NCBI GenBank assembly: GCA_963772655.1
Contig: CAVYYE010000003.1
Coordinates: 2,609,341-2,673,340 of the forward strand
DNA length: 64,000 nt
Direction: 5' to 3'
From: an uncultured delta proteobacterium
GTDB lineage: Bacteria > Myxococcota_A > Polyangia > Haliangiales > Haliangiaceae
Both the position numbers and the translations under genes were made by a program. A model generated the notes under the pieces. The model ran no database searches and had not been told where the DNA came from. It worked only from the letters and a program-made list of their open reading frames with translations. Within the stretch, counting starts at the first letter, position 1, and every line of letters starts with the position of its first letter. Shown here one piece after another: positions 4,707 to 62,353 of this stretch.

Positions 4707-6884
<2,178 letters not shown>

Positions 6885-6902
6885 CGCGGTAGCATCGTCG
6901 CG

Positions 6903-7460: not shown

Positions 7461-7528
7461 CGCCGCATCACGCATACACCGGGGGCTTTTGTGGGAAACT
7501 CGCCACGCGGTAATCTCGAAGCTGGCTG

Positions 7529-11517: not shown

Positions 11518-11582
11518 GCGGCTCGCCCTAGGCCGGCGTTACAAACGCGCGCTTTGTCGCGGCGGGTGGTACCGTTTTTTTC

Positions 11583-12116
11583 ATGCCGCTGTTCGTCGCG
11601 GTCGGGCTCACGATCATGATCGCGGTCGCGATTTCGTGGGTGTGGGTCTCGCGAGTACGCGTGACCGCCAAGCGCGTGCCGGTGATGACCAACCGGATCG
11701 CGTTTCCGGGTGGTCTGCGACTGCACGAGCCCGAGCTCGCGCTGGCGCGACTCGACGAGCCCGAGGAGATCGCGATCCCGTTCGAGAAGGCGACCCTGGT
11801 GATCGCGTATCCGCTCTCGACCCCGGCGTCGGTCGAGATCGTCGCGCCGATCGCACACGGGTTCACGCGTGCCGCGCTCGTGCGCGCGATCTGCGAGGAA
11901 TACGCCCACGTCTACGAGGCGGAGGCCGGCACCTCCGCGATCGAGCCGGAGGTCAGCGAGGAACGCAAACGCAACCGCACCGATGGCGCGTACGGGATCT
12001 GGGGCTACGACCTCCAGGATCTCGTGCTCACCGCCCTGCGGTGGACGCGGCGCCCCGACGGTACGGTCATGATCGACCTGCACGTCGAGAGCTGGGGGTT
12101 GCGGCTGACGCCCTAG
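11583..12116 (+). CDS. membrane-anchored hypothetical protein
   Basis: N-terminal TM (MPLFVAVGLTIMIAVAISWVWV), globular remainder; lies between the two Cys-rich repeat genes. Confidence 0.5.
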   Translation: MPLFVAVGLTIMIAVAISWVWVSRVRVTAKRVPVMTNRIAFPGGLRLHEPELALARLDEPEEIAIPFEKATLVIAYPLSTPASVEIVAPIAHGFTRAALVRAICEEYAHVYEAEAGTSAIEPEVSEERKRNRTDGAYGIWGYDLQDLVLTALRWTRRPDGTVMIDLHVESWGLRLTP

Positions 12117-46382: not shown

Positions 46383-49300
46383 ATGGCCGACGTCGACCTG
46401 GAGCTCGCCAGCATCGGCGTCGTGCTCGTCGAGGAGCGAGTGCTCCGACGCGTCATCAAGGGCCACCGCAAGTTGCGCGGGGTCGGCCTGCTGGTCCCGC
46501 ACGCGCATTGCTACCAGCTCCCCAAGGCCGACCTCGTCGACCACGTCGATGACGACGAGCTGACGGTCGACCTCGACAAGCTGCCCGAGCGGATCGTCCT
46601 GTTGCCCTCCGAGCGCGGCCGCGCGACGACCCCGGAGGAGTGGACCGCGGCGTGGCGAGAGATCTTCCACGCGCGGATTCACCTCGCGTTCGAGGACAAG
46701 CTCGCGGAGCGCCGGCTGACGCTGTCGGCGATCCGCGAGCGGATCAACCGTCTCGGCCAGACCGAGTTCGACGAGATCCGGTCGGTGCTCAAGCAGGAGG
46801 CGCTGCTGCTGCCTCCGGTCGACGACATCGCGACCTACGTCGAGTTCGCGGCGCTCTACCTCGAGCTCGAGAACTTCGCACCGACAGCGATCGAGCGCAC
46901 GTTCCCGGCGCTGTTCGACACCGCCCGGGTCGATGCCACGCTGGCGCTCGACCTCGACGCCGCGGAGCTCCTGGCGGCGGCCCGACCGCCGAGCGCCCCC
47001 TCGACCCCGGTGATCGCGTCGCACGTCGCCCAGATCCAGCGCGACACGCGCGCGGCAGTGCTCAGCGACACGGCGAAGCAAGCGGCCCACGAAGCCGCGC
47101 TGACCGCACGCGACAAGGGCAATCGCTCGCGCGCCGCGATCCTGCACTACCGCGCCGGGATGGCGGTCGCCGGGCGCGCCGACATCGAGGAGCTGGTCGC
47201 GCGCCTGTCGCGCGCGCTCGATCCGCCCGAGCTCCCGGAAGCCGCCGAGGCGGTCTCGACGTCGCGGCGGAGCACGGCGCCGCTGCCCGCGGTCGACAAG
47301 GAGACCGCGCAGCGCTGGGTCGACGAGCTGTGCAAGGTCGCCGAGTACGCGGCGCGCCAGACCTCGCTGCGGTTCTCGATCGGCGCGCGGCTGCTCTACG
47401 ATCTGCAGGCGGCGTGCGTGGTCGCCGAGCGCGAGGTCAAGGTCGTCGACGTCGCGACCTGGGCGCTGTCCCGCGGCAAGCGACCGATCGTGCGCGAGCT
47501 GCCCGCGACGCGCGAGGTCCGCATCGCGAAGCACGTCAAGGGCGCGGTCGCCAAGGTGCCGACGTGCGGCGTGCCGACGCCCGATCTCACGGCGGTGCTG
47601 CGCGACGTCCAGGCGCGCGCCGACGGCAACGTCCGCGCGGTGATGCGGCCGAAGATCGAAGTAGCGCTCGATCAGGTCGACCTCCATCCGCACAGCCTCC
47701 CCGAGCGCGTCGGAGAGAAGAAGCTTGTCGACGAGCTACTCGACCGCGCGGTCGCCGTAGGCCGCCTCTCGATCGGCAGCCTGCGCGACGCGCTGTCGAA
47801 GAACGACCTCAAGACCAACGACCTCACGCTGTCCGAGCTCAAGACCGGCGATCAGCTACTGCGTTGCGACGACATCCTGTCGCACTCGATGGACGGCGTG
47901 TACCGGCGCGGCGAGCAGTACATGCGGGGGCTCCAGCGCTTCAGCTCGGTGCTGTTCGGCACTCGCGTCGGCCGCTGGCTCACCCTGTACCTGATCCTGC
48001 CCGCGCTCGGCGCACTCGCCGTGATGGAGGGGCTCCAGCACACGGTCGGCCTCTTGATCCACAAGCTCACCGGCAACGAGCCCGAGATCTCGACGCAGAC
48101 CTCGAAGCTGGCGTGCGCCGCGTTCCTGTTCCTGCTGATCCACGTCAAGCCGTTCCGCAAGCTCGCGATCTGGGTCGGCCTCAAGATCTGGTGGCTGATC
48201 AAGCTGCTGCTGTGGGACCTCCCGCTCGCGATCTGGCGCCACCCGATCGCGAACCGCTACTTCGAGAGTCGCTTCCACGGCTGGATCGTCCGACCCGCGC
48301 TGCTCGGCGCGATCGCGTGGCTCGCGATCCCGAGCCGGTTCGAGATCCCGCTCGCCCGCGAGCTCCGTCACGTCGTCGCCGTCGGCGTGGTCATCCTCGC
48401 CATGGTCGTGATGAACACGCGGATGTGGAAGGTGCTGCAGGAGCGGATGGCCGACTGGGCCGTGCGCTCGGGCCGTCACGTCACCACGCGGCTGTTGCCG
48501 GGCGCGCTCAAGCTGATCCTCGAGGTGTTCAGCAAGTTGATCGAGCGCTTCGATCGCGCGATCTACCGCGTCGACGAGATGCTGCGGTTCCGCAAGGGCC
48601 AGTCGAAGATCGTCGTCGTCTTCAAGGGCACGTTCGGCGCGCTGTGGTTCATCGTCACCTACGTCCTGCGGCTCTACATCAACCTGTTCGTCGAGCCGAC
48701 GATCAACCCGATCAAGCACTTCCCCGTGGTCACGGTCGCGGCGAAGCTGATCATCCCGATCTTGCCGTCGCTGCTCGAGGGCATCACCAACGCGACGCAG
48801 CCGCTATTCGGAGCGTTCGCCGGCACGTTCGCCGGCTTCACGGTGCTCGTGCTTCCCGGGCTCGCCGGCTTCTTGGTGTGGGAGTTCAAGGAGAACTGGC
48901 GTCTGTACCGCGCGACGCGCCCGACGATCGTCCACGCGCAGGCGATCGGACATCACGGCGAGACCATGATCGCGTTCCTCAAGCCCGGCTTCCACTCGGG
49001 CACGATCCCGAAGCTGTACACGCGCCTGCGCCGCGCGGCGTGGCGCGACGACGAGCGCGGTGTCGCCAAGGCCAAGGAAGGGCTGCACCACGTCGAGGAA
49101 GCGATCGCCACGTTCGTCGATCGCCAGCTGGTGTCGATGCTCAACGAGGTCGAGTCGTTCACACCGACCGACGTCACGGTCACCCACGTCGAGATCGGAT
49201 CGAACCGCGTGCAGATCGAGCTCGCGTGTCCGAGCGTGGCGCGCGAAGCAGCGCGGATCCGGTTCGAGCAACAATCCGGGTGGCTGGTCGCGAGCATCCC

Positions 49301-49712
49301 GGAGCGCGGGTGGCTCGCTCACCTCGACGACCACGCGCGCCGGATCTTCGAGATCTCCTTGACCGGGTTCTACAAGCTGTCGGGGGTCGAGCTCGTACGC
49401 GAGCAGCTCGAGTACGCGTTGCGCGGCGAGAGCGGCACGCCGCCGCCGTACGACGTCGCCGACGAGGGGCTGCTGGTGTGGCCCGCCGGCGCCTACAACA
49501 CCGAGGCGATCTACGATCTCCACCGCGCCAAGCTGACGCCCACGATGCGCGGCGAGCCGTACGGTGGTGGGCTCCCCGATCTCGCGCGCCACCACGCGCT
49601 GTTCGCGCGCGAACCGCTGTACTGGTCGGTGTGGTCGACGGCGTGGCAACAGATCGCGCGCGGCGAACAGCCGATGCCGCTGCTCGTGGGGCCGCACCTG
49701 CTCGCGGCCTAG
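46383..49712 (+). CDS. large hypothetical membrane protein (soluble ~550-aa N-terminal region plus polytopic C-terminal region)
   Basis: 1109-aa ORF with consistent codon usage; multiple predicted TM helices in C-terminal half (e.g. WLTLYLILPALGALAVM, LACAAFLFLLIHV, IWWLIKLLLW, VVAVGVVILAMVVM, FGALWFIVTYVL). Confidence 0.7.
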   Translation: MADVDLELASIGVVLVEERVLRRVIKGHRKLRGVGLLVPHAHCYQLPKADLVDHVDDDELTVDLDKLPERIVLLPSERGRATTPEEWTAAWREIFHARIHLAFEDKLAERRLTLSAIRERINRLGQTEFDEIRSVLKQEALLLPPVDDIATYVEFAALYLELENFAPTAIERTFPALFDTARVDATLALDLDAAELLAAARPPSAPSTPVIASHVAQIQRDTRAAVLSDTAKQAAHEAALTARDKGNRSRAAILHYRAGMAVAGRADIEELVARLSRALDPPELPEAAEAVSTSRRSTAPLPAVDKETAQRWVDELCKVAEYAARQTSLRFSIGARLLYDLQAACVVAEREVKVVDVATWALSRGKRPIVRELPATREVRIAKHVKGAVAKVPTCGVPTPDLTAVLRDVQARADGNVRAVMRPKIEVALDQVDLHPHSLPERVGEKKLVDELLDRAVAVGRLSIGSLRDALSKNDLKTNDLTLSELKTGDQLLRCDDILSHSMDGVYRRGEQYMRGLQRFSSVLFGTRVGRWLTLYLILPALGALAVMEGLQHTVGLLIHKLTGNEPEISTQTSKLACAAFLFLLIHVKPFRKLAIWVGLKIWWLIKLLLWDLPLAIWRHPIANRYFESRFHGWIVRPALLGAIAWLAIPSRFEIPLARELRHVVAVGVVILAMVVMNTRMWKVLQERMADWAVRSGRHVTTRLLPGALKLILEVFSKLIERFDRAIYRVDEMLRFRKGQSKIVVVFKGTFGALWFIVTYVLRLYINLFVEPTINPIKHFPVVTVAAKLIIPILPSLLEGITNATQPLFGAFAGTFAGFTVLVLPGLAGFLVWEFKENWRLYRATRPTIVHAQAIGHHGETMIAFLKPGFHSGTIPKLYTRLRRAAWRDDERGVAKAKEGLHHVEEAIATFVDRQLVSMLNEVESFTPTDVTVTHVEIGSNRVQIELACPSVAREAARIRFEQQSGWLVASIPERGWLAHLDDHARRIFEISLTGFYKLSGVELVREQLEYALRGESGTPPPYDVADEGLLVWPAGAYNTEAIYDLHRAKLTPTMRGEPYGGGLPDLARHHALFAREPLYWSVWSTAWQQIARGEQPMPLLVGPHLLAA

Positions 49713-49733: not shown

Positions 49734-50807
49734 CTACGGCACGAGCGGCGAGAACACGAACATCGAGTCGGTAGGCTCGAACGTCAGCGTGGTTGCACCA
49801 CCGGGCACGAACAGCCGCCCGGCGACCACCGCGCCGTGCGCACCCGCGCGCGGCTCCGGCATCGGTGCGTGCAAGGTCGGGTTGGCGGGATCCGGACCGG
49901 TCTCCCAGGTGTCGAGCGTCGGATCGTAGATCTCGACGACATCGAGCGCGTCGAGCCCGGCCTCGCCTCCCGCGCACACCAGGCGGCCGTACAGCGTCCC
50001 GTACGCGCAACCTCCTCGCGACGTCGGCATCGACGCGCGCAGCTCCCACACCGGGTTCGTGCCGTTCGCCGGCGATTGCAGCTCGGCGAGCGACATCGCG
50101 TAGACATCGCCGAGCGGACGCGTCGTCGTGAGGTCCTCGAGTCCGCCGGCGACGATCATCGTGCCGTCGTACATGCGCATCGCCGCGGGATGCGAGCGCG
50201 GCGTCGGCAGATCGACGGGGAACTGCGACCACGGGGACTCGCCCTCGGGAACACCGAGGTCGAAGTCGAGGATCGACGCCAGCGCGCGATCGGTGGAGGC
50301 GCCGCCGACGAGGAAGATGTGCCCGGGCGACACCACGACGGCCGAAGCGCCGCGTTCCTCGCCGATCGGCATCGACGCGAGCTGCTTCCACTGCGGATCC
50401 GGAACCCCGGTCTGGAGTGCGTAGACGTCGCCGCGCGCGACGAACGATCGACCCTCGAGCCCGCCCAGCAGGTAGACCACGCCACCGACCGCCGCGACGT
50501 TCGCGTGTGTCCACGCGACCGGGGCCGGTGGGAGCGAGCCCCATTCGCCGGTCAGCGTGTCGTAGGTCAGGACGTCCATCGTGATCGGGAGTCCCTCGGT
50601 CATGCTGGCCGAGAACCCGCCCACGATCACGAGCTTGGTGCCGAGCGAACCCGCGGCGGCCTCGAGGCGACGCGAGGGCATGCCGGTACCGTCGTCCGGA
50701 AACGGCACGGAGTCCCAGGTTTCCTGGAGCGATTGCGGCTCGGTCGTGGTGTCGCACGCCACCACCATGGCGAGAGCGATCGACAAACCGGCGCGGACCA
50801 CGCCCAA
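49734..50807 (-). CDS. Kelch-repeat beta-propeller lipoprotein
   Basis: Lipobox AMVVACDT; repeated GG/W/Y Kelch-like blades (VIVGGFS, VYLLGGLEG, IFLVGGAS, MIVAGGLED, LVCAGGEAG, LFVPGGAT). Confidence 0.7.
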   Translation of the reverse strand: MGVVRAGLSIALAMVVACDTTTEPQSLQETWDSVPFPDDGTGMPSRRLEAAAGSLGTKLVIVGGFSASMTEGLPITMDVLTYDTLTGEWGSLPPAPVAWTHANVAAVGGVVYLLGGLEGRSFVARGDVYALQTGVPDPQWKQLASMPIGEERGASAVVVSPGHIFLVGGASTDRALASILDFDLGVPEGESPWSQFPVDLPTPRSHPAAMRMYDGTMIVAGGLEDLTTTRPLGDVYAMSLAELQSPANGTNPVWELRASMPTSRGGCAYGTLYGRLVCAGGEAGLDALDVVEIYDPTLDTWETGPDPANPTLHAPMPEPRAGAHGAVVAGRLFVPGGATTLTFEPTDSMFVFSPLVP

Positions 50808-51478: not shown

Positions 51479-52107
51479 TCGCACGAGCTTTCGCGATCGC
51501 GGTCGTGGCCGTCACGCTATCCGGCGGCCGCGCGCGCGCCGAGATGATCGCGTTGCCAGACCCGCCGACGAGCGCGAGCGACGACACGGACGACGACGCC
51601 ATGCCGTCCATGCTCGGATTCCGGTTCGGGGGTGGCACCGCGGAGCTTCCTCACGGCCCGGTGTTCGAGATGGGCCTCGGGATCGGCGTCGAGCACCACC
51701 TGTTCGGTCGCTGGCGCCTCGGTGGCGAGTACGAGTACCTGTTTCTCTCCGACGACACCGAGCTGATGGCGGGAAACGAACGCGCGCAGACCAGCGTCGG
51801 GCGCGGCCACCGCGCTCACGTCCTGCTGCGTCGCCGGATGCTCGAGAGTCGATGGATTCAAGGGCGCATCCGGTTCTTCGCCGATGCCGAGCTCGGCGGC
51901 GGGATGCTGCTCGCTTCGGTTCCGAGCGAGACGATCGTCGCGCCGCACGCGTTCGTCGGCGTGCGTGCCGGTTACGACATCTCCTCGCTCGGCGACTCGC
52001 GTGGCTCGCGGATCTGGGAATCCGAGATCCTCGTCCGCGCGATCGCGAACCGTCGCGACGGCACCGTCGGGTGGATGTTCGGGATCGGGATGAACTGGGG
52101 CGACTGA
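51475..52107 (+). CDS. secreted hypothetical protein (beta-rich); start codon uncertain (TTG/GTG)
   Basis: C-terminal 210 aa of long ORF; putative signal peptide LIARAFAIAVVAVTLSGGRARA. Confidence 0.4.
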   Translation: MIARAFAIAVVAVTLSGGRARAEMIALPDPPTSASDDTDDDAMPSMLGFRFGGGTAELPHGPVFEMGLGIGVEHHLFGRWRLGGEYEYLFLSDDTELMAGNERAQTSVGRGHRAHVLLRRRMLESRWIQGRIRFFADAELGGGMLLASVPSETIVAPHAFVGVRAGYDISSLGDSRGSRIWESEILVRAIANRRDGTVGWMFGIGMNWGD

Positions 52108-52128
52108 CCCTCTTCGAGCCGGGCTAGA

Positions 52129-52776
52129 TCACGTGGGGAGATCGAGCCAGCGCATCGCGTGCGGCCAGTCGTTCTTCAGCATGCCGCGCACGCACCACAG
52201 CTGACACAGCGCCTCGATCGGCCGCGCCGACTGCACGCCCCCCATGTCCGCCGTGTGCCATCCGAACGCGGTGAGGATCTCGGTGACCGTGGCCTTCGCA
52301 CCATCGTCGTCGCCGCAGATGAACATCGTCGGCGTCGGCTGGAACGCAGGCTTGACCATGAACGCGTTGCCGATGCTGTTGAACGCCTTCACGAACTTCG
52401 CCTGGGGCACCTTGGCCTGCAAGCGCTCCATCAGCGACTCGTTGGCCTTCGTGAAGTAACGGATCACGCCGTTGTCGGGCTTCTCGTCGGCGATCGGGTT
52501 GGTCGCGTCGATCACGACCTTGCCAGCGATGCTGCCGGCGATGTCGCCGACGATGCTCTCGACGGCCGTCCCCTTGACGGCGAGCACGACCACGTCGCCC
52601 CACTTCGCGGCTTCAGCGAACGTGCCCGCCGAGGCGTCGCCCTTGGCACTCGACTTCCACTCGTCGAGCTTCTTGGGGTCGCGCGACGCGCGCATCACGG
52701 CGTCACCGCGATCGAGGAAACCCTTGGCCAGCGCCGCACCGACCTGACCGGAACCGAGGATGGCGATCTTCTTCAT
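52129..52776 (-). CDS. NADPH-dependent F420 reductase-like oxidoreductase (NpdG/ProC-like Rossmann)
   Basis: MKKIAILGSGQVGAALAKGF dinucleotide-binding motif; 215 aa; upstream part of the ORF rejected. Confidence 0.8.
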   Translation of the reverse strand: MKKIAILGSGQVGAALAKGFLDRGDAVMRASRDPKKLDEWKSSAKGDASAGTFAEAAKWGDVVVLAVKGTAVESIVGDIAGSIAGKVVIDATNPIADEKPDNGVIRYFTKANESLMERLQAKVPQAKFVKAFNSIGNAFMVKPAFQPTPTMFICGDDDGAKATVTEILTAFGWHTADMGGVQSARPIEALCQLWCVRGMLKNDWPHAMRWLDLPT

Positions 52777-53738
52777 GCCGCCGACCTTCGCATAGCTCCG
52801 CGTGGCTTGTTCGGGAGTGCGTCGCGCATCCGCGCCGCTCCGGTCTTCAAGTAGAACGACCAGTAGCCGATGTGCCGGCCGTAGCGGCGGCGGATCTCGC
52901 ACTCGTCGAACGAGGCGCCGTACAACGCCGGACCATCGCCCGCGAACACCGCCCGGGGCACGTCGTCCATCCGACCGAGGCCGCGGAGCAGGATCGCCGC
53001 CGCCGAGAACGGCCCGATGCCCGGGATGCGAAGAAGAGCATCGCGTGCCTCCGTATACGGTGCCTCGCACAGGATCGTCTCGCCGATCGCAGCGACGCCG
53101 CGCACCACGTTCGCGATCTGCTCGCCCCTGCGCCGGTTTCCGATCGCCTCGGAGATATCCTCGGGATCGAGCGCGACCAGACCGTCGAGCTCGGGGAACG
53201 CGCGCAGCGTGGTATCGCCGACTCGGACCTCGAGTCCGAACCGCTCGAGGAACCGCCGCTTGAGCGTGGCCGCCATCGCGATCGGCGCGCGCTGCATCAT
53301 CACGCAGTACACCGCGATCTCCGCGAGGGTCAAAAACCTCACGTGATGCAGCCCGTGTAGCGAACCTACGATCGAAGGCTTCGCGAGCGGGCACCCAGCC
53401 GGGAGGTCGACCGCGGAAGCGAAGCCGAGCAAGAAAGCCATCACCGGATCGCCCTCGGCCGCATCGTAGAACGGTGCCAAGTCGTCCCGGGCACCGACGA
53501 AGTCCGCCGCCACGCGCGCGACGCGATCGATCGATCGCCGCTCGGTGTCGATCACCAGCTCGCCGTCGCGATCGAACAACGTGAACGGCACCGCGCGACC
53601 GTCGATCGCGATCGCCGCGGTGAGCGATCGATCGCCGAGCACGTAGTCGGTGCTGACCGGCAGGAACCGCCGGATGAAGGTCAGCGTGTGGTCGAACGAG
53701 AACGGCTGGGTGGTCGCGATCGTGCGCTGCATGTCCAC
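52773..53738 (-). CDS. alkA: DNA-3-methyladenine glycosylase II (AlkA-like), HhH-GPD family
   Basis: HhH-GPD motif LLRIPGIGPFSAAAILLRGLGRMD with catalytic Asp; 4-bp overlap with downstream reductase gene. Confidence 0.8.
   Translation of the reverse strand: MDMQRTIATTQPFSFDHTLTFIRRFLPVSTDYVLGDRSLTAAIAIDGRAVPFTLFDRDGELVIDTERRSIDRVARVAADFVGARDDLAPFYDAAEGDPVMAFLLGFASAVDLPAGCPLAKPSIVGSLHGLHHVRFLTLAEIAVYCVMMQRAPIAMAATLKRRFLERFGLEVRVGDTTLRAFPELDGLVALDPEDISEAIGNRRRGEQIANVVRGVAAIGETILCEAPYTEARDALLRIPGIGPFSAAAILLRGLGRMDDVPRAVFAGDGPALYGASFDECEIRRRYGRHIGYWSFYLKTGAARMRDALPNKPRGAMRRSAA
53380..53430. repeat. copy B of ~50-bp dispersed repeat (inside alkA-like CDS)
   Basis: CTTCGCGAGCGGGCACCCAGCCGGGAGGTCGACCGCGGAAGCGAAGCCGA; encodes FASAVDLPAGCPLAKP on minus strand. 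Confidence 0.6.
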
Positions 53739-53812
53739 GTGATATGCGACCGGAGTGTCAGCCTCTTGTCAGGTTTGAATGGCGGACCAACGCTCGCGAC
53801 GCGAGCGAACGC

Positions 53813-55138
53813 TCACCCCAGCTTCTTGTAGGGGGATTTGCCGGTGACCTTCGTGTAGACGTGATACCCGAGCCAGCGAAACGGCTCGGGCGGGATGCCC
53901 GAGGGACGCAGGTTGTAGAACGCGCAGTCCTTCCAGGCGTCGCGATTGCCATCGTAGAGGTCGGCGATCACGCGACCCGCGAGGTTCGCGAGCGTGATGC
54001 CGTGGCCGCTGTAGCCGAGCCCGTAATACACGTTGTCGTGATCGCCGATCACGCCGATGCCGCAGTGCCGCGGAAGCGTGAGATCGAGCGGACCGCTCCA
54101 GCGATGCGCGAGCGGAACGTCGGCGAGCTCGGGGAAGTAGCGCAGCATCGATCCGTGGAGCGCGCGGGTCGCGTGGTCGCCGAGCTTCGCGTCGTAGGTG
54201 GTCGCGTTGTTGAACCGGTAGCCGTACGACGCGGTGGTGCCGCCGCCGAAGATCATCCGGCGCTGGTGATCGACGCAGCCGTACGCGAGGCGCGGCAGGT
54301 CGTCGAACCAGCCGGCGAGCTTGCCGAGGCCGAGGCGATCGACGGTCGCCTCGGGCAGCGGCTCGGTCGCGATCACGTGCGAGATCACCGGCAAGAGGCC
54401 GCCGCGAAAATATCCGAGCCGCGGCGTGTAGCCACTGGTCGCGAGCACGATCGCCTTCGCGCGCACGGTGTGCCCGCCGGCCACGAGCTCGATCGTCGCG
54501 CCCTCGCGGATCCGTTCGACCGGCGTGCCCTCGTAGATCTTCACGCCGCGCTCGACCAGCACCGGCCGCAACGCGCGCACGAGATCGACGCCGGCGAGCT
54601 GCGCCTCCGTCGGATCGAGCACCGCCCCGTACGCGTTCTCGATTCGCAACACGCCGGGCAGCTCGTCGCGGGTCAGGTAGCGCACGGGCACGCCGCGCTC
54701 GCCGAGGAGCTCGACGATGCGGTGCGCTTCTTCGGCTGACTCCGTGGTGGTCGACACGTGCACGCAACCGTCGCGGCGAAACCGCACCGGCAGCTCGTGC
54801 TCGCGGATCATCGCCTCGATGCCGTCGATCGCCTCGCGGGTGACCCGGTGCTCGCGCGCCATCACGTCGGGATCGATGTCCTTCACCGTGATGCCGTTGA
54901 GGACGAGCCCGCCGTTGCGCCCGCTCGCGCCGTTGCCGAGTCGCGTGGCCTCGAACAGGGCGATGCCGAGCTCGGGATGGCGACCGGCGAGGTGATATGC
55001 GGTGGTCACGCCGGTGAACCCGCCACCGACGATCGCGACGTCGACCTCGAGATCGCGGTCGAGCGCCGCCGCCGGCCGATCTGCCGGCGCGTCGACCACC
55101 CACGACGAGATGTTGTCGTCGAACGAGCGATCCGACAT
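53813..55138 (-). CDS. FAD-dependent oxidoreductase (DAO family; gamma-glutamylputrescine oxidase/amine oxidase-like)
   Basis: VDVAIVGGGFTGVTTAYHLA FAD-binding Rossmann; 441 aa. Confidence 0.85.
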   Translation of the reverse strand: MSDRSFDDNISSWVVDAPADRPAAALDRDLEVDVAIVGGGFTGVTTAYHLAGRHPELGIALFEATRLGNGASGRNGGLVLNGITVKDIDPDVMAREHRVTREAIDGIEAMIREHELPVRFRRDGCVHVSTTTESAEEAHRIVELLGERGVPVRYLTRDELPGVLRIENAYGAVLDPTEAQLAGVDLVRALRPVLVERGVKIYEGTPVERIREGATIELVAGGHTVRAKAIVLATSGYTPRLGYFRGGLLPVISHVIATEPLPEATVDRLGLGKLAGWFDDLPRLAYGCVDHQRRMIFGGGTTASYGYRFNNATTYDAKLGDHATRALHGSMLRYFPELADVPLAHRWSGPLDLTLPRHCGIGVIGDHDNVYYGLGYSGHGITLANLAGRVIADLYDGNRDAWKDCAFYNLRPSGIPPEPFRWLGYHVYTKVTGKSPYKKLG

Positions 55139-55144
55139 CGATGG

Positions 55145-56575
55145 CTAGACCACGCCCGCGAAGCTGACGAGCTTGGTCTCGAGGTTGTCGTAGAGCCCCT
55201 CGCGCCCGCACTCGTGGCCGACACCGCTGTCCTTGCGACCGGAGAACGGTGCCTCGGTGGCCTGCGGCGCCCAGTCGTTGACGCCGATCATGCCGAACTC
55301 GAGGCGCTCGTAGGCGTGCATCGCCGCGCGCAGGTCGTTGGTGAACACGTACGCGGCGAGCCCGTAGCGCGTGGCGTTGGCCTGCACGATCGCCTCGTCG
55401 AGCTTGGCGAACGAGGTCAGCGCGAACAGCGGCCCGAACACCTCGTCGGTGTACGCCGGCATCGACGCCTGGATGCCCGACAGCACGGTCGGCTCGAGGA
55501 AGTAGCCCTTGCGAGCGGGTCGCTTGCCGCCCGCTCGCACCTTGGCCCCCGCGGCGGTCGCCTGCGCGATCAACCCCTCGACGCGATCGCGGTGACGCGG
55601 GCTGATCAGCGGTCCGACGCGACTCGCCGGATCGGTGCCCGGCCCGACCGGAAGCTTGCGGGTCTCCTCGACGACGACCTCCTCGAACGCCTTCGCCTTC
55701 GCCGCATCGATCATGAACCGCTGCGGCGACACGCAGACCTGCCCGGCGTTGCGGAACTTCGCGGACACCGCACTCTTCGCCACCGCCTCGATGTCGGCGT
55801 CGGGCAGCACCAGCACGGGCGCGTTGCCGCCGAGCTCGAGCGACAGTCGCGTCATCGTCTTCGACGCGCCGTCCATCAGGATGCGGCCGACGGGCACGCT
55901 ACCGGTGAAGCTGATCTTGCGCAGCTCGGGATGATCGAGCATCGCCTTACCCATCGCGGCCGGATCGCCGTTGACGACGTTGATCGCGCCAGCCGGTACT
56001 CCGGCTTCCGCGAGCAACTCCCCCATCGCCATCCCCGACAGCGGGGTCAGCTCCGACGGCCGCATCACGACGGTGCAGCCGGCCGCCAGCGCCGCGGCGA
56101 CCGCGCGCGCCGGGTTGTAGGCCGGAAAGTTCCACGCCGTGATCACGCCGACGACACCGATCGGCTCGTGGAGCACGAGGATCCGCTTGCCCGCGACCCG
56201 CGACGGCACGGTGTGGCCGCTCACGCGCTTACCCTCCTCGGCGAAGAACTCGAACAGATCGCCGGCGATCTTCCACTCGCGCACGGCGTCGCCTCGCGGC
56301 TTGCCGCTCTCGCGCACCGTCACATCGGCGAGCTGTTCCGCGCGTTCGCGCATCAGGTTCGCCGCACGGATCAAGATCGCGCCACGGTCGTACGCGGTGC
56401 GTGCCCGCCATGCCGGCAGCGCCGCGTGCGCCGCATCGATCGCTCGGTTGGTATCGGCGGCGCCACCGAACGGCAACGACGCGATCGTCTCCTCGGTTCC
56501 GGGATCGATCAGGTCCCAGCGACCACCGTCGATCGCGTCGACCCAGTTTCCATCGATGAGTAGTTGCTGCTTCAT
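55145..56575 (-). CDS. NAD(P)-dependent aldehyde dehydrogenase (succinate-semialdehyde / aminoaldehyde dehydrogenase-like)
   Basis: ALDH catalytic motifs LELGGNAP and FRNAGQVCVSPQR (Cys nucleophile), GSVPVGRILM. Confidence 0.9.
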   Translation of the reverse strand: MKQQLLIDGNWVDAIDGGRWDLIDPGTEETIASLPFGGAADTNRAIDAAHAALPAWRARTAYDRGAILIRAANLMRERAEQLADVTVRESGKPRGDAVREWKIAGDLFEFFAEEGKRVSGHTVPSRVAGKRILVLHEPIGVVGVITAWNFPAYNPARAVAAALAAGCTVVMRPSELTPLSGMAMGELLAEAGVPAGAINVVNGDPAAMGKAMLDHPELRKISFTGSVPVGRILMDGASKTMTRLSLELGGNAPVLVLPDADIEAVAKSAVSAKFRNAGQVCVSPQRFMIDAAKAKAFEEVVVEETRKLPVGPGTDPASRVGPLISPRHRDRVEGLIAQATAAGAKVRAGGKRPARKGYFLEPTVLSGIQASMPAYTDEVFGPLFALTSFAKLDEAIVQANATRYGLAAYVFTNDLRAAMHAYERLEFGMIGVNDWAPQATEAPFSGRKDSGVGHECGREGLYDNLETKLVSFAGVV

Positions 56576-56577
56576 GG

Positions 56578-57930
56578 CTAGACTCCGTTGACCTCGACGT
56601 GGTGGAGCGCCTCGGCGATCACGGCGAGTCCCTCGCGAACCTCGTCCTCGGTGATCGTCAACGGCGGCATGAACCGGATGCAATTCGAGTACAACCCCGC
56701 GCGGATCAGCACCACGCCGTTACCGACGGCTCGCTTGATCGCGGCCAGCGCGTGCTGGGGAGCAGGCGTCCGCGCCTGGCGATCGGTGACCAGCTCGATC
56801 AGGAGCATCGGTCCCTCGCCGCGAACGTCGCCGATCAACGTGCCCGCCGCCTGCATCTTCTCGAGCTCGGTGCGCATGATCTCTCCGATCCGGCGAGCGT
56901 GATCGAAGAATGCGGGCGTGTTGATCTGCTTGATCGCCTCGATCGCGGCGACGCACGCCACCGGACTACCTCCGTAGGTGCCGCCGACGCCGCCGAGGTG
57001 CGGCGCATCCATGATCTCCGCGCGTCCGGTGGTCGCGCTGATCGGCATGCCCGCACCGAGGGACTTGGCGGTCGTGATGACGTCCGGCACCACGCCCGCG
57101 TGCTCGACGGCGAACAGCGTCCCGGTGCGTCCGAATCCGGTCTGCACCTCGTCCGCGATCATCACGATGCCGTGCTGGTCGCAGAGCTCGCGGATCCGGC
57201 GCAGGAACCGGTGCGGCATCGGAATGAACCCGGCCTCGCCCTGCACCGGCTCGATGATGATCGCGGCGAGCGCCGACGGATCGATCTGCGCGACCATCGC
57301 GCGGTCGAGTGCCGCGATGCAGGCATCCGTGTACGCCTCCTCGGTCATCTCGTTCATCGCCGCCGGCCGGTGGTAGTAGTCGGGCGCGGCGATCCGGTAG
57401 ACCTCGGGTGCGAACGGTCCGAATCCCTGCTTGAACAACCCGTACTTGCTGGTCAGCGTCAGCGTCAGGAGCGTGCGGCCGTGATAGCCGCCCTCGAAAC
57501 ACAGCACGCCCGCACGTTTGGTGTGAGCGCGAGCGACCTTGATCGCGTTCTCCACCGCCTCGGCGCCGCTGTTGCCGAGCAGCGTCTTCTTCGGAAACTT
57601 CCCCGGCGTGACGGCATTCAGCAACTCGCACAGCGCGACGTACGGCTCGTAGGTGGTGACCAGCGCGCAGGTGTGAAGAAGCTGCTTGGCCTGCTGCTCG
57701 ATCGCGGCGACCACCTTCGGCGGACAGTGTCCGACGCCGATCATGCCGATACCGCCGGCGAGATCGATCAGGGTGTTGCCGTCGACATCGGTCACCAGCG
57801 CGCCACGACCGCTCGCGACCACGACGTCGGTCGATCTCGCGAGCCCTCGCATCACGGCGTTCGCTCGCCGATCGAGGATCGCACGACTCTTCGGACCCGG
57901 AATCTCGGTGACCTTGTGGATCGCTCCCAT
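56578..57930 (-). CDS. gabT: 4-aminobutyrate aminotransferase-like class III PLP aminotransferase
   Basis: IADEVQTGFGRTG and ITTAKSLGAG (PLP-binding Lys) motifs; 4-bp overlap (ATGA) with downstream aldehyde dehydrogenase. Confidence 0.9.
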   Translation of the reverse strand: MGAIHKVTEIPGPKSRAILDRRANAVMRGLARSTDVVVASGRGALVTDVDGNTLIDLAGGIGMIGVGHCPPKVVAAIEQQAKQLLHTCALVTTYEPYVALCELLNAVTPGKFPKKTLLGNSGAEAVENAIKVARAHTKRAGVLCFEGGYHGRTLLTLTLTSKYGLFKQGFGPFAPEVYRIAAPDYYHRPAAMNEMTEEAYTDACIAALDRAMVAQIDPSALAAIIIEPVQGEAGFIPMPHRFLRRIRELCDQHGIVMIADEVQTGFGRTGTLFAVEHAGVVPDVITTAKSLGAGMPISATTGRAEIMDAPHLGGVGGTYGGSPVACVAAIEAIKQINTPAFFDHARRIGEIMRTELEKMQAAGTLIGDVRGEGPMLLIELVTDRQARTPAPQHALAAIKRAVGNGVVLIRAGLYSNCIRFMPPLTITEDEVREGLAVIAEALHHVEVNGV

Positions 57931-57963
57931 GCGCGAACGGTCGCACGAATTCCGGTCGGGCAC

Positions 57964-58629
57964 CTACGGGTACGGCACGTCCCGATCGGCGGGCAACACC
58001 AGCACCACGCCGTAGCCATCGCACACGGGGTCGTCGATGTATCCGGCGATCAGGCCGCGAAGCTCGAAGCCGATCTTGCGCTGCGCCGACACCGTCGGAT
58101 CGGAGCGCGTGCCGGCAACCAGCTCGTCGTAGTAGGCCTCGGCGGAGAGGTGATCCTTGACCACGCCATAACCGCTCGGCATCCCGACCGTGACCTGGCC
58201 GTCGAGCCCGAGCCGACGTACGACCTCGTGACGGGCGGCATAGAGGGCGCGCGCGATCCCGCGACCGCGATAGTCCGGATGGGTACCGACGTCGGCCCCG
58301 TAGAGCCACGGGCCGGTCGGATCGTGCGAGGTCAGGTAGCCGCCCTGGATGATGTCGGCGAAGGTGTGGTTCGGGTGATCGAAGTCGAAGCGGTAGCGGA
58401 TCGTCGAGGTCATGCCGACGACGCGATCACCGGCGTTGGTATCGATCACGCAACACTGACCGTCGGGAAATAGCTCGACGTGCCTGGCGTAGTGGCGGGC
58501 CTCGAAGCGCTCGGCGGGCGCCAGCGTCGGGAACACGATGCGCTGCAGCTCCTCGAGCTGCGCGTAGTGCTCGGGCCCGGTACGCACGACCGCGAGGCCG
58601 TCGCCGAACCGATGGATCGCGTCGGTCAC
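57964..58629 (-). CDS. GNAT family N-acetyltransferase
   Basis: Acetyl-CoA binding region HPDYRGRGIARALYAARHEVVRRLG; 221 aa; paralogous to N-terminal domain of next gene. Confidence 0.8.
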   Translation of the reverse strand: MTDAIHRFGDGLAVVRTGPEHYAQLEELQRIVFPTLAPAERFEARHYARHVELFPDGQCCVIDTNAGDRVVGMTSTIRYRFDFDHPNHTFADIIQGGYLTSHDPTGPWLYGADVGTHPDYRGRGIARALYAARHEVVRRLGLDGQVTVGMPSGYGVVKDHLSAEAYYDELVAGTRSDPTVSAQRKIGFELRGLIAGYIDDPVCDGYGVVLVLPADRDVPYP

Positions 58630-60164
58630 ACCTCGCTCCGCTTACCACCCTCGGTGTAACGCACGGCGTAGAGATCCGTGCGCCGGTCGAGCCACGTGCG
58701 GATGCCGGCGGTGAGGCGGTAGCGGCGCAGCGCCTCGATGTCGAGCTCCTGCACCACCATGGTCTCGACATTCGGCGTTGCCTCCTCGGCCACACCGTCG
58801 CGCGAGAACGCGACGTCGCTCGGCGTCAGGATGCAGGCCTCGCCGTAGTGGATGTCGGCGCCCTGAACGAACGGCAGGTTTCCGATCGGACCGGCGAGCA
58901 CGGCGTACATGCCGTTCTCGATGCAGCGCGCCGCGGAGCACGACCGGATCCGCATGTAGCCCGAGCGGATGTCGGTGTTGAACGGCACGAACAGCAGCAT
59001 CGCTCCCTTGGAGGTCGCCACCCGGACGACCTCGGGGAACGACACGTCGTCACCGATCATGATCGAGATCTTGCCGCGGTCGGTATCGAACACGCCGATC
59101 TCGCTGCCCGGCGAGACGCCCCACCAGCGCAGCTCCGACGACGAGATGTGCAGCTTGAACTGGCGCTCGACCGAACCGTCGCGGCGAAACAGCGAGGCGA
59201 TGTTGTAGAGCTTGCCGCCCTCCTTCGTCAGGTGGCTGCCCCCGATGATGTTGAGGTTGTACTTCATCGCCATCTTGATGAAGAACTCGTTGTACGCCTT
59301 GGTGAACTCGTCGAGCCGACGCGCGGTCGCCGACGATTCCGGAGCCGGTACCAGGACCTGCAGCTGGTTGGTCACCATCTCCGGAAACAACAAGAAGTCC
59401 ATCCGATACTCGGACGCGGTGTCGATGAAGAACTCGCACTGCTTCGAGAACTGCTCGAAGCTCTCGATCGGCCGCATCTGGTACTGGACGGCCGCGACAC
59501 GCACGGTGCGCACGGCGGCTGGCATGTCGTCGGGGTGGTGCGTCGGGTTCAGCCACTCCATGAACACCGCGTAGCCACTCGACTCGGTGTCCGACGGCAG
59601 GTAGCCGCGGAACACCTCGCGCACGCTGAACCCCTGTGCGAGCTGTGCGGTGAGCACGGGATCCTTGTCCTTGAGGTCCTTGCGGATGACGCGCCGGACG
59701 TACTCCTCGGCGGTCATCTTGTCGGCCTGTTTTCCGTAGCCGGGGATCCGGCCGGCGATCAGGATCGCGCGCAGGTTGCGCTGGCGAGCGAGCTCCTTGC
59801 GAGCCTCGTAGATCCGGCGCGTCAGGTGTACGCCACGGTGCTTGGGATCGACCGCGATGTCGATGCCGTACAGCGTGTCTCCCTCGGGATCGTGGTTGCG
59901 GATGTAGCCGTGGTCGCTGACCTCGTCGAACGTGTGGTAGGCGCCGAAATCCTCCTCGTCGACGATCAGCGAGCTCGAGGTGGCGACCAGCTGGCCATCG
60001 ATCTCGACGCCGATCTGACCTTCCGGAAAGATCGCGAGCTGGCTCTCGAGTTGGTCCTTGGTCCACGGCTCGATCGGAAACGACCGCTTCTGGATCTCCT
60101 GGATGGCGCGCAGGTCGGACTTGCGAAGCTGGCGAACCAAGAGTCGGGCGCGGGACTGAGACAT
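58626..60164 (-). CDS. bifunctional GNAT N-acetyltransferase / carbon-nitrogen hydrolase (nitrilase superfamily) protein
   Basis: N-terminal GNAT (DPKHRGVHLTRRIYEARKELA), C-terminal CN-hydrolase (VAAVQYQM..., FPEM, catalytic Cys in YGEACILTP region). Confidence 0.85.
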   Translation of the reverse strand: MSQSRARLLVRQLRKSDLRAIQEIQKRSFPIEPWTKDQLESQLAIFPEGQIGVEIDGQLVATSSSLIVDEEDFGAYHTFDEVSDHGYIRNHDPEGDTLYGIDIAVDPKHRGVHLTRRIYEARKELARQRNLRAILIAGRIPGYGKQADKMTAEEYVRRVIRKDLKDKDPVLTAQLAQGFSVREVFRGYLPSDTESSGYAVFMEWLNPTHHPDDMPAAVRTVRVAAVQYQMRPIESFEQFSKQCEFFIDTASEYRMDFLLFPEMVTNQLQVLVPAPESSATARRLDEFTKAYNEFFIKMAMKYNLNIIGGSHLTKEGGKLYNIASLFRRDGSVERQFKLHISSSELRWWGVSPGSEIGVFDTDRGKISIMIGDDVSFPEVVRVATSKGAMLLFVPFNTDIRSGYMRIRSCSAARCIENGMYAVLAGPIGNLPFVQGADIHYGEACILTPSDVAFSRDGVAEEATPNVETMVVQELDIEALRRYRLTAGIRTWLDRRTDLYAVRYTEGGKRSEV

Positions 60165-60211
60165 CTTGGCAACCTACCGCAACGGTCGCGTCCCGGCTCC
60201 GCGGGCCAAGC

Positions 60212-62353
60212 CTATTCGAGGCGACCTGCGGTGCTGACCTTGCCGCGCTCGCGATACATGCGCTCGATGGTCGCCCGAAGCAACGGTTCGTCGATCTCGG
60301 TACCGGCCGCGCCGGCGACGTAGGCGGCACGTTCGCAGGCCACCTTGATGAAGCCACCCGACAGCTCGTAGGCATCGGCCAGCGCGTCGAAGTCGATCTC
60401 GGGCGACGACTCATCGTCGCCATCTGCCCGACCCGGATTCTTCGGGAGCGTTCGCCGCCACAGCTCGGCGCGCATGTCTGGACTGGGGAAGCTGAAGAAC
60501 ACGTCGTAGGTGAACCGGCGCTTGAACGCCTGGTCGATCGCGCTGGTCAGGTTGGTGGTCAGGATCGCGAGCCCACCGAACCGCTCGAGCCGCTGCAACA
60601 GGTAGTTGGTTTCGAGGTTGGCGTAGCGATCGTTGCTGCTCTTGACCTCGGACGTGCGCTTGCCGAACAGCGAGTCGGCCTCGTTGAACAACAGCACGAC
60701 GTGGCCGGGCTCGGCGGCGTCGAACACGTCGGACAGGTTCTTCTCGGTCTCGCCGAGCCACTTCGACACCACCTGCGACAGGTCGACCTCGTAGATGTCG
60801 AGGCCGAGCCGCTTCGCGAGCACGGTGCCCGACATCGTCTTGCCGACGCCGGGGTGGCCGGAGAACAGCACGCTGATGCCCTGCGCACCCCGCAGCTTGA
60901 ACTGGTCGCGGATCGTGCGCCGCTGGTTGGCGGCCGCGGCGATCTCGAGCAGTGCGGACCGGGTGTCGTCGTCGAGGATCAGGTCGTCGAGGTCGAACGG
61001 TGTCGACAGCTTCTTGCCGAGCCGGCTGATCCGCTGGTGGAGCTGCGCGGCGACCGCGGCCGCGAGGTCGTCGGGCGCGGGAGGACCGGCATCCGGCATG
61101 CGACCTGCGGCGGCCGCCTGAGCCGCGGCGACGATGATGCCGCCCGGGATCGCGAACCGGTTCGACAGGTTGTTCGCGTCGGCGGTGCTCAGCGTCGGGG
61201 CGACGTCCTGCCACATCGTCGCGCGGGTCGCGAGATCGGGCACCTCGAGCGAGACGTGGACCAGCGGTCGCTGATGGATGCGCGGCAGGCGTTCGCGGTT
61301 GAACGTGATCGCGAGCGGGCCTGCCCACTCGTCGATCAACGCGTCGACGAACGGCGGGAGCTCGTCGTGCGTGTCCTCGAGCTGGACGGCATCGTCGAGG
61401 TCGGCGAACACGGGAATCGCGTCGAGCAACCGGAGCTCGCGCACGATCGACCGGATCGCGAGCGGACGGACGGAGACCGGCAGCTGGCCGAGTCGTCCCG
61501 CGTCGATCGTCAGGATGCGCTGGCCCCAGTGACCGGCCGCGACCTGGAGCAGCAGCTTCTTGCCGAGACCGCGCTGACCCTGCACCGCGAGCACGACCTC
61601 GTTCGATCGCAGCGCCGCCTCCGCGCGCTCGACCGCGATCGGTGGAAACGCGCCCCGGTCCGAGCTCGGGCGAAGCTCGCAGATGTCGGCGAGCTCGGGA
61701 TCGAGATCGATCGCCGTGCCGTCGAGCAGGTACACCAGCCGCGACGCCGCGCGGATCCGGCGGAACATGATCGAGTCGCCGCTCGCGGTCGGTGTACTGA
61801 CGTCGACCAGCCGGTAGCGCACCAGCGGCGAGCTCGGCGACAGGTCGCGCGCCATCAGCGACCGCGACGTCGGCGTGTCGTAGACCAGGAGCGCGAGCAA
61901 CCGTCCGTCGAGCCCGCGGCAACCGTCATCGCGGGCGAGGTAGCGATAGGCCTGCACCAGGTTCGGATCGGTGTCGGGGAGCAGCGCGAACATCAGGGTC
62001 GACCACTGCCGCGGTGTGAGACCGAACGTCCGGATCAGATCGATCAGCGCGGAGCGTTGCTTGGCTTCGACGGTCGCTCGGATCCGCGCCTCGACGTCGC
62101 GATGCTTGGCGAGCCACTGCTCGAGCACCGTGCTCGCACCGGCGTCATCGCCGGTCGGTGCCTGACCGCGGGCCTGCGCGAACAGCCGGCCGATGTCGGT
62201 CGCGCCGATCGCGTCGTCGGTGATGTTGACGCGACCCTTCGTCCACGCGAGCCGGACCTGGTACTCGACCCTGAGCCACGCGCGCTCGAGCTCGTCGCGC
62301 AGGTGAGTCGCGACGTCCGGGTACGGCCCGGCTTCCGGTTTCTCGCGAACCAC
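60212..62353 (-). CDS. AAA+ family ATPase (C-terminal canonical AAA domain, degenerate N-terminal AAA-like domain)
   Basis: Walker A GHPGVGKT, Walker [10 protein letters not shown], sensor/arginine finger region; degenerate upstream module GQRGLGKK. Confidence 0.85.

Follow-up and report, generated by a model that had tools for sequence, protein, structure and literature searches.

A candidate operon for acyl-protected amine catabolism in an uncultured member of the Myxococcota, headed by a GNAT–carbon-nitrogen hydrolase fusion that lacks the catalytic cysteine

The genome assembly of an uncultured delta proteobacterium (GCA_963772655.1; GTDB lineage Myxococcota_A, Polyangia, Haliangiales, Haliangiaceae) carries on contig CAVYYE010000003.1 a run of minus-strand genes whose products resemble enzymes of amine breakdown. 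The stretch that was analysed, here called the window, comprises 64,000 nucleotides (positions 2,609,341 to 2,673,340 of the forward strand), and coordinates are given as positions within it. An earlier reading of the region from its letters and open reading frames, referred to below as the original prediction, saw in it an acetylation-dependent route from putrescine through gamma-aminobutyrate (GABA) to succinate semialdehyde. In this paper we describe a tightly packed block of five genes at 53813-60164, follow this block and its parts through other genomes, and weigh what the first protein of the block, a fusion of a GNAT-like domain to a carbon-nitrogen hydrolase (CN hydrolase) domain that we call FUS, may do with a glycine in place of its catalytic cysteine.

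Genes at the locus and the conserved five-gene block

The window is GC-rich (~68%), so that raw lists of its open reading frames are noisy. GC content at third codon positions favoured one minus-strand frame per segment from 60164 down to 52129, which agrees with the co-orientation given in the original prediction but resolves seven genes in 52129-60164, not eight. The block begins with FUS (58626..60164, minus strand, as are all genes of this region; 512 aa), which matches both Acetyltransf_1 (30.3 bits, cut-off 20.7) and CN_hydrolase (PF00795; 71.8 bits, cut-off 23.2). It is followed by GNAT2 (57964..58629), a stand-alone GNAT-like protein of 221 aa with a GTG start (Acetyltransf_1, 31.6 bits), by a class-III (omega) aminotransferase of the GabT/PuuE family (56578..57930; Aminotran_3, 405.7 bits) and by an NAD(P)-dependent aldehyde dehydrogenase (ALDH; 55145..56575; Aldedh, 514 bits). 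An FAD-dependent amine oxidoreductase of the DAO family (53813..55138; DAO, 196.7 bits) is the last gene.

These five genes are closely coupled. The GTG start of GNAT2 lies over the stop codon of FUS in a 4-bp overlap (GTGA), and 0-33 nt separate GNAT2 from the aminotransferase gene, depending on whether the latter starts at the ATG at 57930 or at an alternative GTG at 57963 that abuts the GNAT2 stop. The aminotransferase and ALDH genes, which had been thought to overlap by 4 bp, are in fact 2 nt apart (TAG CC ATG), and a 6-nt spacer precedes the DAO gene. After the DAO gene there is a gap of 74 nt before the next gene, which encodes a glycosylase-like protein.

The conservation of this arrangement was surveyed by scanning one genome per species, which yielded 41 loci encoding FUS relatives, and by running the window proteins against these loci by tblastn. 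The best matches were in Kofleriaceae (Myxococcota), and the order FUS-GNAT2-aminotransferase-ALDH-DAO was found again in about 20 metagenome-assembled genomes (MAGs) of Kofleriaceae, Haliangiales or 'Deltaproteobacteria' with differing flanks. In a locus for which genes were called and labelled with Pfam domains (L043), FUS is 85% identical to that of the window and the same five genes stand between unrelated and convergent genes. By contrast with this block, the glycosylase-like gene, the F420-type reductase gene and the AAA+ gene that adjoin it in the window were beside it in none of the 41 related loci by tblastn. Together with the 74-nt gap, this indicates that the real unit consists of five genes (53813-60164); the coupling that had been predicted stands for these five, which are kept together as a block, and the glycosylase and reductase, counted earlier as part of the cluster, drop out of it.

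The block shows some variation. Two loci (L059 and L060) carry FUS operons of a Cys-Asp type, described below, that are without ALDH, the aminotransferase gene overlapping the DAO gene directly; the DAO gene is conserved in related loci either after the ALDH gene or after the aminotransferase gene. The same two loci have in common an upstream pair of HmuY-like and Bestrophin-like genes, together with a gene for an FHA-domain sigma-54 activator, and L060 has a clear, convergent HhH-GPD gene immediately beyond DAO, which may be a coincidence. In L007 (12014-15862), and at the same position in L011, a 4.3-kb insertion splits FUS from GNAT2, and the operon resumes after it. This insert was considered as a source of a further pathway enzyme and rejected, since its products are two SPFH/Band-7 proteins and a transporter of the SulP family that carries a fused hexapeptide-repeat domain.

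The fusion protein and its missing nucleophile

In FUS a GNAT-like domain at the N-terminus (about residues 8-206) is joined to a CN_hydrolase domain at the C-terminus (about residues 221-502), which covers profile positions 1-254 of 256. In the family alignment the position of the catalytic cysteine is occupied by Gly371 (codon GGT, 59052..59054, minus strand), and the local motif reads IMIGDDVSFPE against ILICYDxEFPE in the family. HMMER likewise placed G371 at the position held by Cys153 in mouse Nit2 and by Cys169 in yeast Nit3. Glu262, Lys337 and Glu344 are kept, and the catalytic Glu-Lys-Cys triad with its second Glu is incomplete for the cysteine only. The nearest solved relatives by sequence and fold, the Nit2/Nit3 omega-amidase and the Pyrococcus horikoshii amidase (branch 10-like), have the same Glu-Lys-Glu as the CN domain but differ from the window FUS in possessing the catalytic Cys, at about 21-24% identity.

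The substitution is widespread among close relatives and is not a sequencing error. In an alignment of 116 full-length homologues and the window protein, position 371 is Gly in 88 of the 117 sequences and Cys in the other 29. E262, K337 and E344 are kept in 88/88 of the Gly-type sequences, save for one conservative Glu344-to-Asp change. The Gly-type CN domain is as well conserved as the domain fused to it (mean pairwise identity 0.85, against 0.82 for the GNAT domain), and the median ratio of nonsynonymous to synonymous substitution (dN/dS) over 23 genomic copies (253 pairs) is lower in the CN domain (0.16) than in the GNAT domain (0.23), the corresponding values in four canonical copies being 0.125 and 0.28.

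By neighbour-joining, the sequences in which residue 372 is acidic (GD, GE or CD) all fell into a single clade of 97 and every canonical CY sequence fell outside it; within the clade 88 sequences carry Gly, and nine Cys-Asp sequences are scattered among them. Only three positions separate this acidic-372 clade from the canonical sequences at the 90% level, namely 371 (Gly/Cys), 372 (Asp/Tyr) and 442 (Glu/Gln), and all three lie in the CN domain. Membership of the clade goes with membership of the operon: among loci with enough downstream sequence, GNAT2 was next door in 19/19 acidic-372 loci (18 Gly-type, 1 Cys-Asp) and in 0/11 loci with the canonical ICYD (Fisher p = 1.8e-8). Gene-called contigs concur: the block accompanies FUS of the Cys-Asp type in L059 and L060, and the canonical L061 stands alone.

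Similar replacements are found at a greater distance. At the nucleophile position, 21 fused representatives of 50%-identity clusters have Cys (16), Gly (4) or His (1). Distant fused lineages in which the nucleophile is replaced and the next Tyr kept are P0123, P0152 and P0169 (G-Y-D), P0150 (H-Y-D) and P0213 (C-G-Y-D), and several stand-alone relatives have Ser at this position. The replacements in distant lineages suggest that loss of the cysteine is recurrent in the fusion family.

Descriptions of the solved structures record Cys-to-Ala and Cys-to-Ser variants of relatives that were crystallised with substrates or ligands bound. In the nitrilase superfamily such variants are generally known to be catalytically inactive. 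Because the window protein has Gly at this position, thiol-amidase activity cannot be assigned to it, and the original proposal that the CN hydrolase domain acts as the deacetylase is left without a thiol amidase to carry it out. The loss of the cysteine from a domain that retains the remainder of the tetrad and is under strong purifying selection points to a non-thiol function, most likely a non-hydrolytic one in ligand binding or scaffolding.

The fused architecture had been thought unusual, but it is widespread and already named in databases. Homologues of FUS number more than 7,000 proteins at E ≤ 1e-10 (90%-identity clusters) and 273 clusters at E ≤ 1e-30 (50%-identity level), they occur in Planctomycetota, Bacteroidota, Proteobacteria, Bacillota and others, and the name in use at NCBI is 'bifunctional GNAT family N-acetyltransferase/carbon-nitrogen hydrolase family protein'. 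Canonical proteins of this type have the same two domains, are 37-53% identical to FUS over the full length and have a GNAT domain that is the same at the clade-defining positions; unlike the window protein, they retain ICYD as their nucleophile motif and are encoded on their own, in a variety of contexts. None of the curated NCBIfam models fits the CN domain of FUS. A Foldseek comparison of the FUS model with Nit2 gave E 2e-17, in agreement with the alpha-beta-beta-alpha fold of CN hydrolases; the AlphaFold model of the whole protein has a pLDDT of only 70.5, and the fold search returned generic nitrilase-superfamily enzymes and no specific subfamily.

Close stand-alone CN hydrolases and stand-alone GNAT relatives exist too. 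In Priestia and Paenibacillus the two halves are found in reverse order, as separate genes in Priestia, and this Rosetta-stone pattern in the Bacillales argues that the two activities act together. In both cases (L048 6977-9236 on a Priestia megaterium plasmid; L054 8001-9501 in Paenibacillus) a Cys-bearing CN hydrolase comes first and its GNAT-like partner second. In Priestia the two genes are followed by an unrelated second GNAT, and the divergent genes encode dimethylglycine-/sarcosine-oxidase-like enzymes, a Rieske oxygenase and a BCCT transporter; this proximity to betaine-catabolic genes may be due to chance.

The contexts of canonical FUS genes (Planctomycetota L032, Salinivibrio, Sphingomonas, Rhodobacteraceae and Kofleriaceae L061) shared no recurrent neighbours, neither an aminotransferase nor an ALDH lay within ~8 kb, and they gave no indication of an ancestral function. 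In Salinivibrio kushneri (L046 940-8530) the canonical FUS is located downstream, at a distance of a few genes, of the ectoine-synthesis genes ectA-ectB-ectC-aspartate kinase and of genes for a LysE exporter and a GGDEF protein, which could reflect a link to osmolyte or diaminobutyrate metabolism, or chance. A second FUS locus was found neither in the window nor in any genome of the one-per-species scan. Our literature search returned no paper on the GNAT–CN-hydrolase fusion or on the four- or five-gene module. Pace and Brenner are said to have described a RimI-fused branch of the nitrilase superfamily in 2001, and YhcX of Bacillus presumably has the same two-domain make-up and presumably lies next to the class-III aminotransferase YhxA. 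The Bacillus gene yhcX has been listed as a 'putative nitrilase' for the synthesis of indole-3-acetic acid (IAA) on the basis of a partial loss of IAA in mutants (PMC4558970).

Partner enzymes, related operons and flanking genes

GNAT2 is just 33% identical to the N-terminal domain of FUS and is therefore regarded as an old paralogue. Its acyl-CoA loop (Q/R-x-x-G-x-G/A) is canonical (RGRGIA). Against PDB sequences the FUS N-domain had only one significant match, the GNAT-like domain of GphF (E 4.5e-5), with SxtA next. The GNAT2 model (pLDDT 89.9) resembles many GNAT structures, and its best folds were the GNAT-like domains of SxtA, CurA and GphF (TM 0.73-0.77 on query, rmsd 2.4-3.0 Å), as against TM 0.53-0.60 for ordinary N-acetyltransferases. 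With these GNAT_L loading domains of polyketide synthases (PKS) the window GNATs share the HDPxG and DPV(L/I) motifs, but they are free-standing or fused to a CN hydrolase instead of being parts of a PKS, and they are without the decarboxylase residues. A decarboxylase role, to which the likeness to GphF, CurA and SxtA might point, was rejected because the catalytic Thr and His (which we take to be Thr355 and His389 of CurA) are replaced by Gly138 and Gln174 in FUS and by Gly149 and Gln183 in GNAT2, residues that are invariant among homologues, including those of Deinococcus. The most economical reading is that the GNATs carry out acyl-CoA-dependent N-acylation.

Among cultured organisms, the nearest homologues of GNAT2 are encoded on Deinococcus plasmids and are stand-alone GNATs. 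An operon Aminotran_3-GNAT-Amidohydro_3-Aldedh with overlapping genes occurs on two such plasmids, in a Microlunatus MAG and on a metagenome contig (L050, L051, L056 and L058). The Deinococcus order is Aminotran_3, GNAT, Amidohydro_3 (526 aa) and a gene annotated as 'succinate-semialdehyde dehydrogenase', and the neighbours comprise an annotated gabT, an FAD/NAD oxidoreductase, an APC permease and a PucR-type regulator. Identity of the window proteins to this operon is 40-44% for GNAT2, 52% for the aminotransferase and 39% for the ALDH. In Meiothermus a GNAT adjoins a class-III aminotransferase and a PotD/F-type binding protein. The recurrence in Deinococcus, Microlunatus and the metagenome indicates that a module of omega-aminotransferase, GNAT-like protein, amide hydrolase and ALDH is conserved across phyla, and its position amid GABA-utilisation genes in Deinococcus supports a logic of acylation, oxidation and deacylation with subsequent use of GABA.

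As in the window, the Deinococcus and Microlunatus genes are tightly coupled and an amide-hydrolase gene lies beside the GNAT; the hydrolase differs, however, in being a metal-dependent Amidohydro_3 protein, neither a CN hydrolase nor fused to a GNAT. No Amidohydro_3 homologue was found in the window or in the loci related to it, and in Kofleriaceae FUS takes the hydrolase slot. The acyl-protected amine/GABA route of the original prediction thus gains from the Deinococcus context and from homology to PuuB and PuuE, but not in its deacylation by the fused CN hydrolase.

Several features of these operons were noted in passing. On the plasmid of Deinococcus sp. QL22 (L050, ~6530-7850) the class-III aminotransferase belonging to the operon is unannotated and its match is split into two parts that adjoin near 7110; this suggests that it is a frameshifted pseudogene, beside an intact GNAT, Amidohydro_3 and ALDH. 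The metagenome operon L058 has a HODM_asu-like gene (heme-dependent oxidative N-demethylase family; 8075-9004) between the aminotransferase and the GNAT, and a ParE-type toxin-antitoxin pair inserted ahead of the ALDH (11313-11835). Several stand-alone Deinococcus homologues of GNAT2 (P0395-P0397, P0402, P0406; L051 7911-8603) bear in public records the name 'nitrilase' or 'nitrilase/cyanide hydratase and apolipoprotein N-acyltransferase'; a CN-hydrolase domain is absent from them, and the label was probably transferred from fused proteins.

The window aminotransferase scores 501.5 bits against the GabT equivalog TIGR00700, just short of the cut-off of 506.65, and lies further under the thresholds of other GabT models. 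Models of the GabT type nevertheless score best, and those for acetylornithine and 2-aminoadipate transaminases are also hit. The protein is 42% identical to E. coli PuuE, and it is nearer to the Deinococcus non-gabT paralogue AT3b than to Deinococcus gabT (52% vs 45%). The earlier description as GabT-like is sound as to the GabT/PuuE family and goes too far as to function; given its score below the GabT cut-off and its nearness to AT3b, the enzyme may act on an acylated amine instead of GABA. The ALDH is, to judge by its sequence, generic: its best-scoring model, that of succinate-semialdehyde dehydrogenase (SSADH; TIGR01780), gives 460.5 bits with a cut-off of 646.35, which does not support a role as SSADH, models for betaine-aldehyde and aminobutyraldehyde dehydrogenases score nearly as high, and identity to PuuC is 31%. 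The flavoenzyme, predicted to be PuuB-like, is homologous to PuuB of E. coli over the full length (29% identity over 424 columns, E 2e-35). Its best NCBIfam match is the aminophosphonate oxidoreductase family (196 bits vs 633) and its second-best L-pipecolate oxidase AmaA, also far under cut-off; the best plasmid-borne homologue (Vibrio, 35% identity) has an uninformative context.

Beyond the DAO gene lies the glycosylase-like gene (52773..53738, minus strand), whose matches are all sub-threshold: HhH-GPD PF00730 at 16.6 bits (cut-off 26.2), ogg at 23.7 (398) and AlkA at 22.2 (229), the last two with E ~1e-5. An HhH-like motif is discernible by eye only, and 'AlkA-like', as the protein had been called, is too strong a name. 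The gene shares the predicted 4-bp overlap, seen as ATGA, with that of an F420_oxidored-type NADP oxidoreductase (52129..52776, minus strand; F420_oxidored, PF03807, 75.6 bits, above cut-off), which scores 70 bits against npdG (TIGR01915; cut-off 149.8). This domain call, like those for the fusion, GNAT, aminotransferase, ALDH and flavoenzyme, held in Pfam searches. The pairing of these two translationally coupled genes (52129-53738) is odd and has no conserved tie to the operon. On the other side, a co-oriented gene (60212-62353, minus strand) stops 47 nt upstream of FUS. Its product is an AAA+ ATPase of 713 aa that has a 'winged helix domain, variant' (PF22977) at the N-terminus, and whose best NCBIfam match, the anti-phage ATPase IteA, is far below cut-off (77.7 bits vs 510). 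Downstream of the region are a Kelch-repeat beta-propeller protein (49734-50807, minus strand; Kelch_1, E 1e-25) and large open reading frames between 50581 and 52127 and at 46383-49712 with no Pfam match. Consensus scans for promoters and terminators in 51900-60500 gave nothing exceeding shuffled sequences and are uninformative on transcript ends, and RNA folding of the 74-nt gap between the DAO and glycosylase-like genes (z = -0.54) gave no evidence on a transcript end.

A candidate route for acyl-protected amines and its alternatives

We propose, with moderate confidence in the whole, that the feature is a five-gene operon running from 60164 to 53813 on the minus strand, that it represents the form taken in one lineage by a wider, uncharacterised 'acyl-protected amine catabolism' module, and that its Cys-less domain is non-hydrolytic. 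GNAT2, and probably also the N-domain of FUS, would acylate one nitrogen of a di- or polyamine or of a basic amino compound. The remaining free amine would be converted to an aldehyde by the class-III aminotransferase, the DAO-family flavoenzyme or both, and oxidation of this aldehyde by the ALDH would yield an N-acyl amino acid. In Deinococcus and the Actinobacteria the Amidohydro_3 protein encoded right after the GNAT would strip the acyl group, and the Deinococcus product appears to feed gabT. In Kofleriaceae FUS holds that slot, and in Cys-bearing relatives it may deacylate the product; the window FUS most likely cannot, its CN domain probably binding a ligand or scaffolding the GNAT. The pathway would then end at an N-acyl product, or the deacylase would be encoded elsewhere. 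We infer the substrate, the acyl donor, the order of the steps and the role of the Cys-less domain from sequence comparisons.

Such a route has parallels in known pathways. The Puu pathway of E. coli (PuuA-PuuB-PuuC-PuuD-PuuE) and the Pau pathway of Pseudomonas degrade putrescine and polyamines under gamma-glutamyl protection, and the logic is like that of the window operon: the amine is protected, a DAO flavoenzyme and an ALDH act, the product is deprotected and GABA is transaminated. Neither a PuuA/PauA glutamine-synthetase-like ligase nor a PuuD/PauD GATase-1 hydrolase was found by domain searches among the genes of 52129-62353; unlike in Puu and Pau, the protecting enzyme would be a GNAT-like acyl-CoA transferase, and the deprotecting slot is held by a Cys-less nitrilase-superfamily domain. 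The arginine succinyltransferase (AST) pathway combines an acyltransferase, a class-III transaminase, an ALDH and a deacylase. The window operon resembles Puu- and AST-type pathways in its proposed working and is a member of neither. Acetylation of putrescine is known in bacteria, and Pseudomonas aeruginosa forms 4-acetamidobutanoate from N-acetylputrescine (PMC10542159).

A number of points weigh against this proposal. The CoA loop of the FUS N-domain (RGVHLT) is non-canonical, and relatives vary at the Gly position, so that this domain may not be an active transferase; in fold, both GNATs come closest to polyketide decarboxylase domains and not to N-acetyltransferases. The parallel with Deinococcus is incomplete, since the operon there has no DAO flavoenzyme and has a separate adjacent gabT, permease and PucR regulator, while the window operon has a DAO enzyme and no gabT of its own. 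Some operon-linked copies (L019, L059 and L060) retain the cysteine in the form ICDD, so that part of the clade may have an active hydrolase. Loss of the cysteine may also have been tolerated rather than adaptive, and the strong conservation of Glu-Lys-Glu would also fit catalysis retained by another route. The dN/dS values come from a simple Nei-Gojobori count on GC-rich, codon-biased genes, and the tree is by neighbour-joining only, with the motif columns removed.

A more specific form of the proposal, which we offer as speculative and rather unlikely in its detail, is that the CN domain is a neofunctionalised pseudo-amidase: with a pocket that was once that of an omega-amidase and has gained two carboxylates and lost its thiol, it would bind a cationic amine or the N-acyl product unhydrolysed and present it to the fused GNAT or sense it on the GNAT's behalf.

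Of the competing explanations, the one that survives best, though we think it improbable on the present evidence, keeps the enzymology and changes the substrate, from putrescine to a basic amino acid as in AST, or to a cyclic or N-alkyl amine, which would be processed much as by pipecolate oxidase, ALDH and aminoadipate transaminase. The two leading flavoenzyme matches (aminophosphonate oxidoreductase, then AmaA) fit it, as do the aminotransferase scores on acetylornithine and 2-aminoadipate models, the AST-like combination of genes and the variants without an ALDH. Against it, GabT-type models remain the best for the aminotransferase, the Deinococcus module sits in a GABA-utilisation context, and in Meiothermus a PotD/F-like binding protein lies beside the GNAT.

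It is somewhat more doubtful that the CN domain is still a hydrolase, with Asp372, Glu442 and the Glu-Lys-Glu residues activating water or serving as nucleophile. The retention of Glu262, Lys337 and Glu344 (but for one Glu344-to-Asp) under purifying selection would suit such an enzyme; the three clade-defining changes all fall within the CN domain, two of them introducing acidic residues, and by analogy with the Amidohydro_3 operons a hydrolase might be expected in this slot. We know of no nitrilase-superfamily enzyme that functions without its Cys, however, and the Cys-to-Ala and Cys-to-Ser variants of relatives that hold bound substrates or ligands in crystals are, as a general matter, inactive. 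CDD is the normal motif of aliphatic amidases, so that Asp372 need not be a new catalytic residue, and the interspersion of Cys and Gly forms in the tree suggests that residue 371 is dispensable.

The pathway of the original prediction, in which putrescine is acetylated, oxidised by the PuuB-like enzyme, converted by ALDH to N-acetyl-GABA, deacetylated by FUS and passed by the GabT-like enzyme to succinate semialdehyde, now seems less probable again. Its logic suits the gene set, with a full-length PuuB homologue and 42% identity to PuuE, a hydrolase is present in the homologous module of Deinococcus and the Actinobacteria, and Cys-bearing, operon-linked copies of FUS exist. It meets the difficulty that the nucleophile is Gly in the window and in 88/97 of the operon-linked clade, and that the aminotransferase is nearer to a non-gabT paralogue. 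To our knowledge, moreover, the characterised acetylpolyamine deacetylases of bacteria are not nitrilase-superfamily enzymes. An account of such deacetylases describes them as being of the histone deacetylase (HDAC) type (PMC4784309). That the genes are chance neighbours or independently transcribed, with unrelated functions, leans on promoter and terminator scans that were uninformative and is hardly credible given the overlaps and 2-6 nt spacers, the same order in about 20 genomes with unrelated flanks, and the perfect correlation of FUS active-site type with presence of the block.

Annotation of these loci calls for care, in that 'bifunctional N-acetyltransferase/carbon-nitrogen hydrolase', 'nitrilase' and 'gabT' are unsafe as functional calls. 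If the proposed acyl-protected amine route is correct, it would be a third way in which bacteria protect amines during catabolism, beside gamma-glutamylation (Puu/Pau) and succinylation (AST), and it would be built on an unusual GNAT-like clade otherwise known only from polyketide loading modules, in several phyla and with two versions of the hydrolase. If the CN domain were in addition a pseudo-amidase, a deacylation module would have become the maker of a stable N-acyl amino compound or a regulator of flux, the nitrilase superfamily would have in this domain its first member with a function but without catalysis, and the recurrent loss of Cys in other FUS lineages would make this a general theme of the family. 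The Kofleriaceae version amounts to a natural experiment, in which the nucleophile has been lost in a defined clade with co-varying substitutions in the pocket while purifying selection persists, and the Cys-less FUS allows a test of whether the nitrilase superfamily has functional pseudoenzymes.

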